Made by a program: the position numbers and the translations under genes. A model generated the notes under the pieces. That model did no database searches and had not been told where the DNA came from. It worked only from the letters and a program-made list of their open reading frames with translations. Positions 21,134-30,140 of a stretch of DNA of 64,000 nucleotides are shown one piece after another. This DNA comes from Candidatus Obscuribacteraceae bacterium (GTDB lineage: Bacteria; Cyanobacteriota; Vampirovibrionia; Obscuribacterales; Obscuribacteraceae), in the NCBI GenBank assembly GCA_044229845.1, contig JBGASG010000012.1, positions 1-64,000 of the forward strand, written 5' to 3'. How positions within the stretch are numbered: the first letter of the stretch is position 1; the number at the start of each line of letters is the position of its first letter.

Positions 21134-22423
21134 ATGACCGCTCCTGCGATTTTGATACAAGGCGGACTGGTGCTGGATCCAGCCTCCAGCAGCGAACGCG
21201 TCGCCGACATACGAATCAGCGACCAGCAGATAGCGGCGGTCGGAGAGAAACTGGAAAAACGCGACGGAGACACGGTTATCGATGCCAAAGGCATGTGGGT
21301 TTGTCCGGGGTTCATCGACCTGCACACCCACATGCGCGACCTCGGACAAAAAGACAAAGAAGACGTAGTCAGCGCCACGAAAGCCGCAGCCGCAGGCGGA
21401 TTCACCACTATCGTCGCCATGGCCAACACTGAACCGCCCGTCGACAACACGGCGACACTACAGGTGGTGCTATCCCGCATCGCCGCCCACGCTCAGATAG
21501 AAGTCTTGCCGGTCGCTTGTGTCACTAAGGGTCTGCAGGGTGCCGAACTCACCAATATGGTAGACCTGGCGGATGCCGGCGCTATCGCCTTCTCCGACGA
21601 CGGCATGTGCATCATGAACATGGCAGTGCTACGCCGCGCCCTGGAATATTCCCGCCTGGCAGAGCGCGTGATCATCAGTCATTGCGAGGACAAAGATCTC
21701 GCGCTCGGTGGCGTCATACACGAAGGCGCCACGGCTACCAGACTGGGCTTGCCGGGCATCCCAACGACGTCTGAAACCGTGGCCGTGGCCCGCGAAATCG
21801 AAATGGTTCGCCAGTTCGATGCGCCGTATCACTTCACGCACATCTCGTGCGCCGACTCCGTCAATTTGATACGTCGCGCCAAGGAAGACGGGCTTCCTAT
21901 CACAGCCGACGTCACTCCACACCACCTGACGTTGAGCGTCGACGAAATCGAACCGTATCATACGTGTTATAAGATGAAACCACCCTTGCGCACCGCCCGC
22001 GATATCGAAGCGCTGATCAAGGGTCTAAAAGATCGCACCATCGACGCCATCGCCACCGACCACGCACCGCATACCAGACTGGAGAAGGCCGGTACAATGG
22101 CTGAGGCAAATGTCGGCATTATCGGATTGGAGTCGGCACTTTCAGTGACGCTCGAGACGCTGGTTTCTTCAAAAGCTCTCAGTCCGCTCAAGTTTGTAGA
22201 ACTGCTGACCACGGCTCCAGCTGCAGTTCTAGACCTGCCACAGCCATCGCTGAGCGAAGGCGCAGTCGCCAACGTGACCGTCATCGATCCCAACACTAAG
22301 TGGACTTACGATGCCCACGCAGGTCATAGCAAATCAACCAATACCCCGTATCAAGGTCGCCAGCTCATCGGCCGGGTGATCACCACTATCTACCGCGGCA
22401 AGCAGGTCTACAAGCCCGCCTAG
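21134..22423 (+). CDS. pyrC: Dihydroorotase (long type)
   Basis: PGFIDLHTHMR, GGFTT, FSDDG, HCED, VTPHHL, KMKPPLR, ATDHAPH. Confidence 0.95.
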   Translation: MTAPAILIQGGLVLDPASSSERVADIRISDQQIAAVGEKLEKRDGDTVIDAKGMWVCPGFIDLHTHMRDLGQKDKEDVVSATKAAAAGGFTTIVAMANTEPPVDNTATLQVVLSRIAAHAQIEVLPVACVTKGLQGAELTNMVDLADAGAIAFSDDGMCIMNMAVLRRALEYSRLAERVIISHCEDKDLALGGVIHEGATATRLGLPGIPTTSETVAVAREIEMVRQFDAPYHFTHISCADSVNLIRRAKEDGLPITADVTPHHLTLSVDEIEPYHTCYKMKPPLRTARDIEALIKGLKDRTIDAIATDHAPHTRLEKAGTMAEANVGIIGLESALSVTLETLVSSKALSPLKFVELLTTAPAAVLDLPQPSLSEGAVANVTVIDPNTKWTYDAHAGHSKSTNTPYQGRQLIGRVITTIYRGKQVYKPA

Positions 22424-22452
22424 GTTTGCGGAAGTCTATATAAAAGCAGCCT

Positions 22453-23148
22453 TTACAGGGCGATGAATTGGGACAGGTCACGCTTGAAATCTTCTGGCGT
22501 TTTGTACCAGCTTCTTTCAAGCAACACCTTGCCGTTGCCGTCAACGTAGATAACGCGCGGAAAACGTGTAACGTTGAAGCGCTTAGCCGTGGATTCATCC
22601 GCTTCAGCATCGATGCTGCGAAAATCAGCTTTGTTTCTCAGTTGGGATGCAACCTGCTCCCACACGGGTTTGAACTCCGTGCAGTACTTTCACCAACTAG
22701 TCCAAAATTCGTACACTTTCAACCGCCCGGCAATCTGCGGACCAGTCGCTCCACCAGGCTGACCAGCAGCTTGTTGAGCCTGCTGCCCCGGCGACTGCTG
22801 TCCCGCAGGCGCTGGGTGAGTCTTCTCTAGCTGGGCGAGAGCCTGTTGCGCCTGCAGTCCAATTGCTGAATTGCCTGCCGCTCCAGCGACCCACTGAAAG
22901 TTTTGGCGCGCCATGGTGTACTGATGCATGCTCTGATAAGTCAAACCAAGGTAGTAATAGACCTCGGGATTCGATGGCGTTTGCCGGCCCGCCTGACCGA
23001 AATAGTTGAGCGCTTCGCTATATCGTTTGGCGGCGTAAGCTTTTTTGCCTTCATCTATTGGTCCGGCAAGTACAGCTTGGGTGCCGACGATCAGAGTTAG
23101 CGAAAGCCCCATGCTTAATTTCTTCCAGTGATGCGATCGTTCAACCAT
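22453..23148 (-). CDS. Exported TPR-thioredoxin fusion with in-frame TGA at 22692-22690 (putative selenocysteine, UxxC motif); 231 aa if read through
   Basis: ORFs 22690-23148 and 22453-22665 are in the same frame. The joined sequence KVYEFWTSW-[TGA]-KYCTEFKPVWEQVA...SIDAE...AKRFNVTRFPRVIYVDGNGK is a complete thioredoxin fold. The N-terminus has a signal peptide and TPR (PEVYYYLGLTYQSM). Confidence 0.8.
22644..22682 (-). promoter_or_regulatory. Candidate SECIS-like hairpin(s) 3' of the in-frame UGA
   Basis: mRNA: UGA-AAGUACU-GCACGG-AGUUCAAAC-CCGUGU, then GGGAGCA-GGU-UGCAUCCC. Confidence 0.45.
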
Positions 23149-23213
23149 TCGAAGAACCTCCAGGGAAGAAACGGCAGTGTATCACGCGGCGAGCTTGTAT
23201 CTATATTTTACGG

Positions 23214-24662
23214 CTACAGCAACCGGGCATACCAGGCATAACGGGCCAATCCAAGACCACCGCCCACCGCAACACCGGTCCTGGCGCTCCGCAACGATGA
23301 TTGCCAGAGATCTTCGTACGAGTTGATCTTGCCGTCCAGAAAGTCATTAGTGGGGACCGCAATCATCATCGCCACGTTACCCGCAATCATGTCACCGGCC
23401 GCGAATTTTCCCGCGCGCGCGATCGGACCGCCCCCTTCGTACAAGCTAAATCCCAAGCGGGTTGCCGTGGCGCGGTTGGTGGCCTCAGCCGCTCGAACGC
23501 CGATACCCATGCTCACTCCAATCATGGCTCCTGATCGCAGATCATCGAGCACCTGCCCCGCGTTCACCGGCCATACGCGAGACAGCAGCCTTGGACACTG
23601 CTCCCACGGCAGCCAGAGCCAGTAAGTTTTTGCTGCGGAACGCCATTAAAGCGACCGCCATCCCGCCCGCCACAATGTTACCGGCAGTGTCAGCTGTCGG
23701 CATCCAGGACGACAATTGGCCTGAGCCGGGCTCCACCAGCGGTGACACAATTGGGGCAGGCGGCTCAGTCGGTGGAGCAATCGGAGCAGGCGTGGGTGTT
23801 GAGGTTGATTTGCGCTTCTCCAGGATGATCGTCGTTTCTACTTCGGTTGAACCGACAGCATACAAGACCGTCACATTCGGCTTGTTTTCTGAAGTGGTAC
23901 CGTTGGTGACCGTGACGGTACGACCTACTTCTTTGGAAATCTCCGCGGCAATCTGGTCGGACGAGGCATTGTTCGCCATCCACTCCGAAACACGGCGAGC
24001 AACCAGACTGTCTAGCTTGCCGTCCCGCTGCATCTGCCTTTGTTGCGCCATCATGTCAAAGCCGGCAGAATCTGTCAGCGATGCGGTGCTCACTTTGCCG
24101 ACAATGGAATAGTCGGGATGGCTGGCTAGATCAAACTCTCTGTGCAAGCCGATGCCCAGTTGCGGCGCAGTCATTGCTGAAGCGGTGGCGAACAAATTGT
24201 TTTCCAGCCTGAGATTGAACTCGACTTTCAATGCATTGCGTTCAGTCGCGATGTACAGTTCCGGCTGCGCTTCGCTGTTTAAGCCTTTCGTTGACGATCT
24301 TGGCAACCTTTGCCCAGTCTCCCTTTCGTATATTGGTAGTCAGCTCACCCATGCGACTTCTCAGTCTGCGGGCAGATTCCGGCACCGCCTCGAGAGCGGC
24401 ACTCAACCGATTAACATCCATACCAATCACCGTCGCCTTTGGCATTGTCTTGCCCAAAACAAAATTCGCGATGCGAACCCAGTTTGTATTCGACCGCAGG
24501 CGGCGCACATCCCAAGCCGAACGGCTCCGGGTCACCCTCGCCGCGCCATCTCATATCGCGGGCTACGGCTACCATCGAATCCGAGAGCATACGCAGTGAA
24601 GCGGTTTCACTGGCATCACTGTTGGGTTCAAGACCTGGTTTCGAAATCAAGTCAAACGACAT
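23214..24662 (-). pseudogene. Hypothetical protein with Gly/Ala-rich hydrophobic C-terminus, apparently split into four overlapping ORFs
   Basis: Overlapping minus-strand ORFs 24411-24671, 24242-24535, 23542-24306 and 23214-23567 read as a plausible continuous protein across three frame changes. Confidence 0.45.
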
Positions 24663-29333: not shown

Positions 29334-30140
29334 TTAGCGCGATTTCGCAGCGGGTTTCTTCGCGGCGGTTTTGTTCGCAGCGGGTTTCTTCGCGGCCGGC
29401 TTCTTCGCGGCCGGCTTCTTCGCGGCTGGTTTCTTCGCAGCTGGTTTCTTCGCAGCTGGTTTCTTCGCAGCTGGTTTCTTCGCAGCTGGTTTCTTCGCAG
29501 CTGGTTTCTTCGCAGCTGGTTTCTTCGCAGCTGGTTTCTTCGCAGCTGGTTTCTTCGCGGCTGGTTTCTTCGCCACCGGCTTGGGGGCTGGCTTTGGCTG
29601 CGGCTTCTTCACCACGGCGGGCACAGATTTGACGGCCGGGATTGTCGCTGCCCCGACAGCAGCAGCGCTACCGTCGACACCGTCAGTAGTGGCAGGTGCA
29701 GGTGGCGGTGGCGGTTTTGGTGTTCCCTTCACCATGGTTTGCGAGAGCCGGCGGTTGAACTCGTTGAACCGCTGTTCCATGTCGTCGAGGTCTTCTTTCG
29801 GATAGCCCTTCTCCGAAACCTGGTTTTCCAAATAAGTGAGCGCCACTACTTGATTCCTGAACATCTCGGATTCTTCGCCGGTCAACCAGCCTTTGGCAAT
29901 TGCACTCTCTATCTGCGAACGGAAGTTGTTCAGGCGCTCTTTATATCTCGCCGCAATCAACGCCGTCTTGTTGCCGCTCAAGCTCTTGAAATATGCGGCG
30001 GCTGAGCCGCTAGAAGTATTTGCACCGGCGGTGGAATCCGTGACGGCGGACACGTCGGCGGAGGCTTCCTCGTCGGCAAAACAAGGCGCCTGCGCTAATA
30101 GACACAGCACCGCCAGCCACGCGCCCACGCCCCTTCTCAT
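29334..30140 (-). CDS. Exported protein with C-terminal histone H1-like (KKPAA)n tail
   Basis: Signal peptide, helical core, then about 15 KKPAA-type pentapeptides. Confidence 0.8.
   Translation of the reverse strand: MRRGVGAWLAVLCLLAQAPCFADEEASADVSAVTDSTAGANTSSGSAAAYFKSLSGNKTALIAARYKERLNNFRSQIESAIAKGWLTGEESEMFRNQVVALTYLENQVSEKGYPKEDLDDMEQRFNEFNRRLSQTMVKGTPKPPPPPAPATTDGVDGSAAAVGAATIPAVKSVPAVVKKPQPKPAPKPVAKKPAAKKPAAKKPAAKKPAAKKPAAKKPAAKKPAAKKPAAKKPAAKKPAAKKPAAKKPAAKKPAANKTAAKKPAAKSR
29344..29574. repeat. Coding 15 bp tandem repeat (GGTTTCTTCGCAGCT)n, about 15 units
   Basis: TTCTTC recurs every 15 bp from about 29386 to 29566, plus two degenerate units. Confidence 0.95.

Follow-up and report, generated by a model that had tools for sequence, protein, structure and literature searches.

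We describe a gene of a Candidatus Obscuribacteraceae bacterium (genome G000 below) whose single in-frame TGA appears to be decoded as selenocysteine (Sec), in a probably exported TPR-linker-thioredoxin enzyme that is predicted to act as a disulfide reductase or isomerase of the cell envelope. We put the probability of this reading as a whole at about 0.9. As for its parts, the comparative sequence data make us highly confident in the predicted incorporation of Sec at codon 153, export is very probable as judged from the N-terminal residues, and we lean toward the predicted role as a reductase or isomerase in the envelope.

The gene was first noticed in a preliminary description of a 64,000-nucleotide stretch of contig JBGASG010000012.1, the whole of which is called the window here. 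That description had proposed a signal-peptide/TPR/thioredoxin selenoprotein, and the proposal gains support from the TGA in homologs, the SelABCD set, the conservation of the domains and a SECIS-like hairpin. Since thioredoxin selenoproteins with a UxxC motif are already a verified class, the novelty lies in the architecture, the export and the lineage. With high probability, this is an unannotated selenoprotein gene of new architecture and in a new lineage, and it involves no new mechanism.

Reading frame and domain architecture

The gene is a single frame of 231 codons followed by TAA, in which codon 153 is the sole internal TGA (Table 1). As stated in the preliminary description, the list of open reading frames (ORFs) splits it though both parts lie in the same frame, and the TGA falls on the first Cys of the WCxxC motif. 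The two pieces have 152 and 70 amino acids, and the read-through sequence is EFWTSW-TGA-KYCTEFKP, with TRFP and DGNGK further downstream. The expectation that standard annotation would miss the gene also proved correct: public collections store the same 152- and 70-residue pieces, on 18 and 27 contigs, respectively. Two RNA runs yielded short contigs over the 5' part of the gene alone, and such contigs cannot show transcription. Rfam gave one chance match and nothing else over positions 22300-23700, and a promoter and terminator scan at the gene remained at chance level.

Table 1. Positions of the gene, its features and two TGA-containing genes of a second family (positions refer to the window unless a G000 contig is named).
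Feature	Position	Strand	Basis
Whole gene, 231 codons with one in-frame TGA and a TAA end	22453..23148	-	
Shine-Dalgarno-like GGAGG, 8 nt 5' of the ATG	23157..23161	-	sequence reading
Probable signal peptide, residues 1-28	23065..23148	-	basic N-region and hydrophobic core; V-L-A ahead of the predicted cleavage site
TPR-like helical module, residues 30-110	22819..23061	-	Pfam TPR_11 and TPR_2; AlphaFold helices with pLDDT 94-98
Low-complexity Q/G/P/A linker, about residues 111-140	22729..22818	-	pLDDT <50 at 117-134; variable in alignment
Thioredoxin domain, residues 141-231	22456..22728	-	PF00085; Foldseek
TGA, residue 153, first (nucleophilic) position of W-U-K-Y-C; inferred Sec	22690..22692	-	homolog alignment
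Cys156, second position of UxxC	22681..22683	-	invariant in 38/38 aligned homologs
Second predicted hairpin, between UGA and SECIS, with CGUGU where other clades have the loop	22662..22682	-	folding
Predicted SECIS hairpin, 8 pairs and one bulge, GGU loop at 22654-22652, 35 nt after UGA	22643..22662	-	-8.5 kcal/mol
Pro197, conserved thioredoxin-fold proline	22558..22560	-	invariant in 38/38 aligned homologs
Second-family paralog	G000:C1:426025-427353 = L207:1526-2854	+	TGA and hairpin
Second-family paralog	G000:C1:848070-849062 = L208:1571-2563	-	TGA and hairpin

The read-through protein matches the Pfam family Thioredoxin (PF00085) with 46.3 bits over residues 144-205 (cut-off 23.5), in agreement with the earlier statement that the fold continues intact past the TGA, and TPR_11 and TPR_2 are matched at residues 36-85. 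An AlphaFold model based on a 38-sequence alignment (mean pLDDT 85.8) predicts a helical module at residues 30-110, a disordered linker and a thioredoxin domain; the pTM is just 0.46, so that the TPR and thioredoxin domains are not fixed relative to each other in the model. The top matches in Foldseek are ordinary thioredoxins (E 7e-7, rmsd about 2.2 Å over 89 columns). Hydropathy profiles place a hydrophobic 11-residue window inside the first 60 residues in all 38 aligned homologs, and the alignment shows a complete CxxC/UxxC motif without variation (consensus WCGPC). We take Pro197 to be the cis-Pro of the thioredoxin fold.

The same TPR module stands at the head of 13 ORFs in G000. These include two Cys-thioredoxin paralogs, four ORFs with D-T-G-A motifs that are presumably aspartic-protease-like, and some stand-alone ORFs; those that consist of signal, TPR and linker are 155-194 codons long.

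Conservation of the TGA codon

The read-through protein has matches in 88 of the 251 genomes of the class and in 69 of the 72 genomes of its own family, the matches outside the family being weak (E 5e-10 or worse). Among the 150 matches listed (of 285, in 251 genomes), at least 45 contain a TGA. It occupies the first position of the CxxC motif in 43 of these 45, which excludes chance; the other two have Cys there and the TGA elsewhere. With five copies added by other searches, the TGA is found at this column in at least 48 genes, spread over 42 genomes in 14 genera of the family; two of these genes carry a longer TPR array. No TAA or TAG stands in its place in any copy fetched. A comparison of homologs for TGA or TGC/TGT at this column had been proposed earlier, and both states were found.

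The occurrence of the codon follows that of the Sec genes, in counts that we treat as patterns and not as statistics because related genomes are non-independent samples. Both selA and tRNA-Sec were identified in 32 of the 39 TGA carriers assessed and one of the two in the other seven; selA is present in the carriers G267 and G269. Among homologs from genomes that have neither gene, no TGA was seen in 135 matches (profile search, five of the seven such genomes). A degenerate DNA pattern for counting the genes of the family was too noisy to be of use, the 20 matches fetched comprising three TPR-thioredoxin genes, six TlpA-like genes and otherwise chance-like sequences.

The selenocysteine machinery

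The preliminary description had named selA, selB, selC, selD or a tRNA with anticodon UCA as the genes to look for, and all four were identified in G000. The tRNA-Sec has the anticodon TCA (66.9 bits, gathering threshold 47) and is the sole G000 tRNA with this anticodon at default settings. SelB scores above its cut-off and has a C-terminal TRKY/TRR stretch in common with the SelB proteins of 33 relatives. SelD has Cys at its catalytic motif; an internal TGA is absent from 88 of 89 SelD matches. Of the 72 family genomes, 57 yielded selA and 60 yielded tRNA-Sec, and the anticodon is TCA in all 30 tRNA-Sec genes fetched from relatives.

An apparent loss of selB from the TGA-carrying genera g10, g13 and g14 turned out to be a threshold artefact: at a looser E-value, SelB over the cut-off, with insertions, was recovered from all five genomes tested. 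The SelB frames with long insertions are 694-813 amino acids long (L119-L121, L128/L133 and L127/L137, from G222, G190, G224, G193 and G172). Such insertions bring the scores below the usual search thresholds, so that surveys could miss these proteins.

In G000, selA adjoins a tRNA-Thr/Tyr/Thr cluster and a gene for an elongation-factor GTPase, probably tuf (G000:C18:251238-255879), and it likewise lies near a GTPase gene in G193, G222, G190, G172 and G224. Elsewhere in the phylum, selA was found in 23 of 300 other genomes, all of them outside the class (families f12, f18, f24, f26 and f38). Sec use within the phylum is thus probably wider than this class.

Hairpins downstream of the UGA codon

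In the bSECIS model, as given in the accessible text of a 2026 catalogue (PMC13188914), a loop of 3-9 nt with G in the first two places lies 16-37 nt from the UGA, the upper stem has 4-16 bp and the MFE is -7.5 or lower. The predicted hairpin of our gene fits this model by its GGU loop, its distance of 35 nt and its energy of -8.5 kcal/mol, and is borderline in having just three pairs above the bulge. The energy as such is unremarkable (z = -0.58 to -2.15, depending on the segment), and equal stability was reached by 110 of 3000 synonymous recodings.

Across the clades of the family, the hairpin downstream of the UGA takes three forms. The most frequent form (type A; 34 TGA copies, nine genera) contains the codons CCC and GTG in 34 of 34 copies and TTT in 33, and the combination CCC-GTG is found in none of 30 Cys copies. 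Two pairs of its stem, which surrounds a CGUGUUU loop, change on both sides (11 cells, 30 sequences), a covariation that was reached in 0 of 500 shuffles and in none of the slid controls; one of the seven stem positions is mostly a C-A mismatch. Type B, in six copies of genus g9, places a GUC/GGUC loop at about 18-19 nt from the UGA. In type C, the loop is GGU(C) and its distance from the UGA is 35 nt; this form is found in our gene, G208, G144 and G267, the only four of 104 family genomes that match its pattern, which was built from them. The G267 protein is just 41% identical to ours, yet 23 consecutive hairpin nucleotides (seven codons) are the same in both genes; at the other identical residues, the codon is the same in just 24 of 78 cases. 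G144 has a variant of this hairpin with a perfect stem.

The E. coli fdhF SECIS likewise has a small G-G-U apical loop and a short stem within the coding region, and its apical sequence presumably resembles that of our hairpin. The present element differs in the placement of its loop, at 35 nt close to the 37-nt limit of the model and behind another predicted hairpin; loops in the sister clades lie about 18-19 and 23 nt away. The type A register was rejected as the SECIS of our gene, where it fits only three of seven pairs. No clear hairpin could be seen in the TGA copy of G269, and by eye we saw no link between the C-terminal sequence of SelB and the type of hairpin.

Several variants were also observed among the TGA copies. 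The Trp before the UGA is replaced by Arg or Thr, with the type A hairpin kept, in L054 (G136), L060 (G224) and L064 (G120). Tandem TGA-TGA pairs occur in genus g2 (L051, L057, L058 and L073). Longer forms of 431-435 amino acids, L078 (G108) and L176 (G230), combine an extended helical repeat array with the same UxxC domain and a type B hairpin.

Cys orthologs and the origin of the in-frame TGA

A profile search of 1.84 billion representatives identified a protein that is 81% identical to ours and has Cys at the site (P0063), in a cluster of five. All five carry the substitutions A167S and Q169E, both of which lie inside the hairpin codons shared with G267. A pattern scan of metagenome contigs for a close ortholog gave three matches, all of them distant and with Cys. 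In a tree of 73 rows, 30 of which are Cys copies, the label changes between TGA and Cys six times, and at least three of these changes are forced by well-supported branches. Five Cys paralogs from genus g7 are placed among TGA copies and have lost the type A codons. The tree is a quick version with rows cut to the last 215 residues and with our protein on a long branch, and we therefore draw no order of events from it. In genus g7, TGA copies also stand in tandem with Cys paralogs that have lost the hairpin codons (L041, L059, L065 and L178).

Several explanations other than Sec have to be weighed for the codon itself. A sequencing or assembly error comes to mind because G000 is a metagenome-assembled genome; it is practically excluded. 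G208, the single congeneric relative of G000, has the same TGA in a gene that differs at seven of 696 nt, always synonymously; the TGA is also reflected in the products of many contigs, and contigs from two more DNA runs span the site with no variant letter. These contigs show none of the TGC or TGT that had been named earlier as the sign of a sequencing error. A recent nonsense mutation of TGC or TGT to TGA could have left a pseudogene or a TPR-only protein, and the existence of five Cys orthologs at about 81% identity and of stand-alone signal-TPR-linker ORFs in G000 would fit such a history. We nevertheless consider it very improbable. The domain past the TGA shares 70-74 of 78 residues (90-95%) with the Cys orthologs, as compared with 115-117 of 150 (77-78%) before it, which is the opposite of the relaxed downstream selection that the preliminary description had associated with a nonsense mutation. 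Furthermore, the 48 genes with a TGA at the same column never have TAA or TAG there, and the hairpin is shared with the 41% identical TGA relative and is lacking at the residue level in the Cys orthologs. Because these orthologs keep the downstream domain better and differ at the hairpin residues, the argument for a recent nonsense mutation fails, and the distribution of the hairpin points to Sec as the older state. The simplest reading of this residue-level comparison is that Sec and the hairpin would be older and would have been lost together in the Cys orthologs.

Slightly less probable still is a genome-wide reassignment of UGA to Trp, Gly or Cys, or its reading by a suppressor tRNA, so that the residue would not be Sec. 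What speaks for this is that RF2 (prfB), which terminates translation at UGA, was not found in the assemblies of G000 and G208. However, TGA terminates 192 of the 571 G000 ORFs of at least 600 amino acids and is thus an ordinary stop elsewhere, and at 43 places aligned to relatives it occurs in none of the Trp columns (TGG 102) and in none of the Cys columns (TGC 111, TGT 18). The only tRNA with anticodon TCA at default settings is the tRNA-Sec. RF2 was identified in 22 of the 30 relatives searched, including both single-contig genomes and G267, and since most relatives have it and G000 is 88% complete, we read its absence as probably an assembly gap. Its absence from eight of the 30 relatives, G208 and seven more, is a high rate for assembly gaps.

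Other candidate selenoproteins in the family

A screen of G000 for a TGA between two coding-like stretches, followed by a hairpin that fits the model, retained 14 of 87 candidates. Besides our gene, two of these are paralogs (Table 1) that share the motif DGxT-U-SA, a stem and a CG(U/G)GUC loop 23 nt after the UGA. The family occurs in 88 of 104 family genomes and is absent from all seven genomes that have neither selA nor tRNA-Sec. A TGA is present in 149 of the 150 matches listed (of 209), and the single match without it starts past the site; in the loci checked, the TGA codon and six stem pairs are kept in 31 of 31. Neither an NCBIfam match nor a Pfam match over the cut-off was obtained. 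A Cys homolog exists (P0191), the predicted structure resembles thioredoxin-fold proteins weakly (best E 0.008), and a signal peptide is probable. The in-frame TGA and hairpin of this second family argue for active UGA recoding in G000; the family is arguably more novel than the TPR-thioredoxin gene.

The preliminary description had further suggested that other redoxins be scanned for the same TGA. In G000 none was seen in the 14 other PF00085 matches, 11 AhpC-TSA matches and three molybdopterin matches; relatives have TlpA/ResA-like genes with W-U-x-x-C (L170-L175 and L177, from G136, G210, G184, G234, G204 and G230) that were not seen in G000. In six of these seven genes, a shared and perfectly paired hairpin presents a GGUC loop about 31 nt downstream of the UGA, and the genes are a candidate third selenoprotein group of the family. 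A self-BLAST screen of 2179 candidates with a TGA and a GGT hairpin yielded only our gene as a sensible pair with a Cys homolog and missed the second family.

A broader proposal, to which we give even odds, is that the Obscuribacterales keep a complete Sec system only for exported thioredoxin-fold proteins, namely the TPR-thioredoxins, the DGxT-U-SA family and some TlpA-like proteins, SelD itself remaining a Cys protein; these would make up an envelope selenoproteome. Within the TPR-thioredoxin family, the SECIS would have been remade at three different spacings from the UGA, and repeated replacement of Sec by Cys would have been accompanied in every case by loss of the hairpin.

Predicted mechanism and function

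In the SelABCD pathway, SelB binds the hairpin and inserts Sec, according to the accessible text of PMC13188914. Here, SelB would bind the GGU-loop hairpin 35 nt downstream and deliver Sec-tRNA to the UGA. After cleavage of the signal peptide at about residue 28, Sec153 would attack a substrate disulfide, Cys156 would resolve the intermediate, and the enzyme could be recharged by a DsbD-type membrane protein of G000, where a DsbD transmembrane domain is present (G000:C8). The TPR module may dock the enzyme to partners or hold substrates, a role suggested by its position at the head of 13 ORFs in G000. Under selenium shortage, termination at the UGA would leave a 152-residue TPR-only by-product.

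The main functional rival to a reductase or isomerase, and one that is compatible with the selenoprotein call, is that Sec is inserted into a protein that mainly acts as a CnoX-like envelope chaperedoxin, in which the TPR part holds unfolding proteins and the selenol shields cysteines with little turnover. The naming of members of a homologous Cys cluster as 'thioredoxin-like negative regulator of GroEL' in one source hints in this direction, as does the joining of thioredoxin to TPR in CnoX and YbbN, which act as holdases according to the accessible text of PMC10998233 and PMC8129009. We think this unlikely: the TPR part is short, at about 80 residues; its occurrence in G000 on aspartic-protease-like ORFs and as a stand-alone unit fits a generic docking tag better; and no aligned homolog departs from the complete CxxC/UxxC motif, with its WCGPC consensus. 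A distinctly smaller chance is given to a selenium-sensing switch with two functional products, TPR-only and full-length. The stop does fall just past a complete signal-TPR-linker unit, and such stand-alone proteins exist in G000, but catalysis fully explains the position of the UGA and stop-free Cys copies are common (30 of 73 tree rows). The preliminary description had likewise allowed for another kind of read-through with a functional TPR-only form, for which we found no support beyond its being possible. We favor a catalytic role for the predicted selenoprotein in the envelope.

Comparison with known systems

The domain order also separates our protein from CnoX and YbbN, although thioredoxin is joined to TPR in all of them. 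CnoX and YbbN have an N-terminal thioredoxin domain, a C-terminal TPR part and no known signal peptide, and CnoX cooperates with GroEL in the cytoplasm. The order is reversed in the present protein, which has a short TPR part, a hydrophobic N-terminus and predicted Sec.

The closest known class is the Sec-thioredoxin (PF00085, UxxC), which is experimentally verified in the 119-entry table of the 2026 catalogue, as far as its accessible text goes (PMC13188914); the earlier statement that UxxC is a known Sec arrangement in redoxins holds to the same extent. Our protein shares the thioredoxin fold, predicted Sec at the first UxxC position, an in-frame SECIS after the UGA and SelABCD, and a thioredoxin domain with W-U-x-x-C and the conserved Pro is present, its activity being predicted. 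It differs by the N-terminal signal peptide, the TPR module and the linker. With 140 extra N-terminal residues, it reaches just 41.7 bits in the TrxA equivalog model TIGR01068 (cut-off 96.8). None of the NCBIfam models, those for selenoproteins included, scored over the cut-off for our protein (P0001) or five TGA homologs, seleno_TsoB giving 26-32 bits against a cut-off of 805. The predicted thiol:disulfide interchange, DsbG-like and TlpA/ResA-like selenoproteins of bacteria (PF13098, NF041057 and NF041054) also have a thioredoxin fold with UxxC, and some are of the envelope type; our protein differs in having a plain thioredoxin domain without the TlpA insertion.

The preliminary description knew of no characterized example with this architecture, and the accessible text of PMC13188914 agrees: no table row has a TPR-thioredoxin build, and there is no mention of TPR, tetratricopeptide, signal peptide or cyanobacteri-. 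Cyanobacteria appeared to lack Sec use in the accessible text of a 2022 review (PMC9312934) and are mentioned only for orphan SelD in that of PMC5029168; the lineage names are absent from PMC5330540. For BSepDB (PMC13326102), none of the 18 Vampirovibrionia rows in the accessible part of the supplement names Obscuribacter; its family table and web database may bear on the novelty. A search mostly outside subscription papers found no published selenoprotein for Obscuribacter or for Melainabacteria, the non-photosynthetic relatives of cyanobacteria, and nothing on the TPR-thioredoxin family.

Our findings correct a systematic annotation error, by which one protein is stored as 152- and 70-residue fragments, and assign Sec decoding, as judged from selA, to the majority of genomes in a family whose phylum was named in the 2022 review as apparently without it. 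The use of selenium that they suggest in this lineage is redox control of the envelope, as opposed to anaerobic respiration. The 81% identical Sec and Cys orthologs and the three hairpins within one family also represent a natural experiment, which can be used to test the benefit of Sec to an exported thioredoxin and the limit of the distance between SECIS and UGA.

Genomic surroundings

Around the gene, no neighbor is kept between genera, only inside single clades, and the adjoining pyrB/pyrC are common to G208 alone among the relatives. Upstream on the same strand (window 23214-24306, reverse strand) are two ORFs of 117 and 254 amino acids without a Pfam match, in a stretch that G208 does not share. 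Further away (window 29334-30140, reverse strand), an ORF ends in more than 12 tandem PAAKK repeats; we take its composition to be histone-H1-like.
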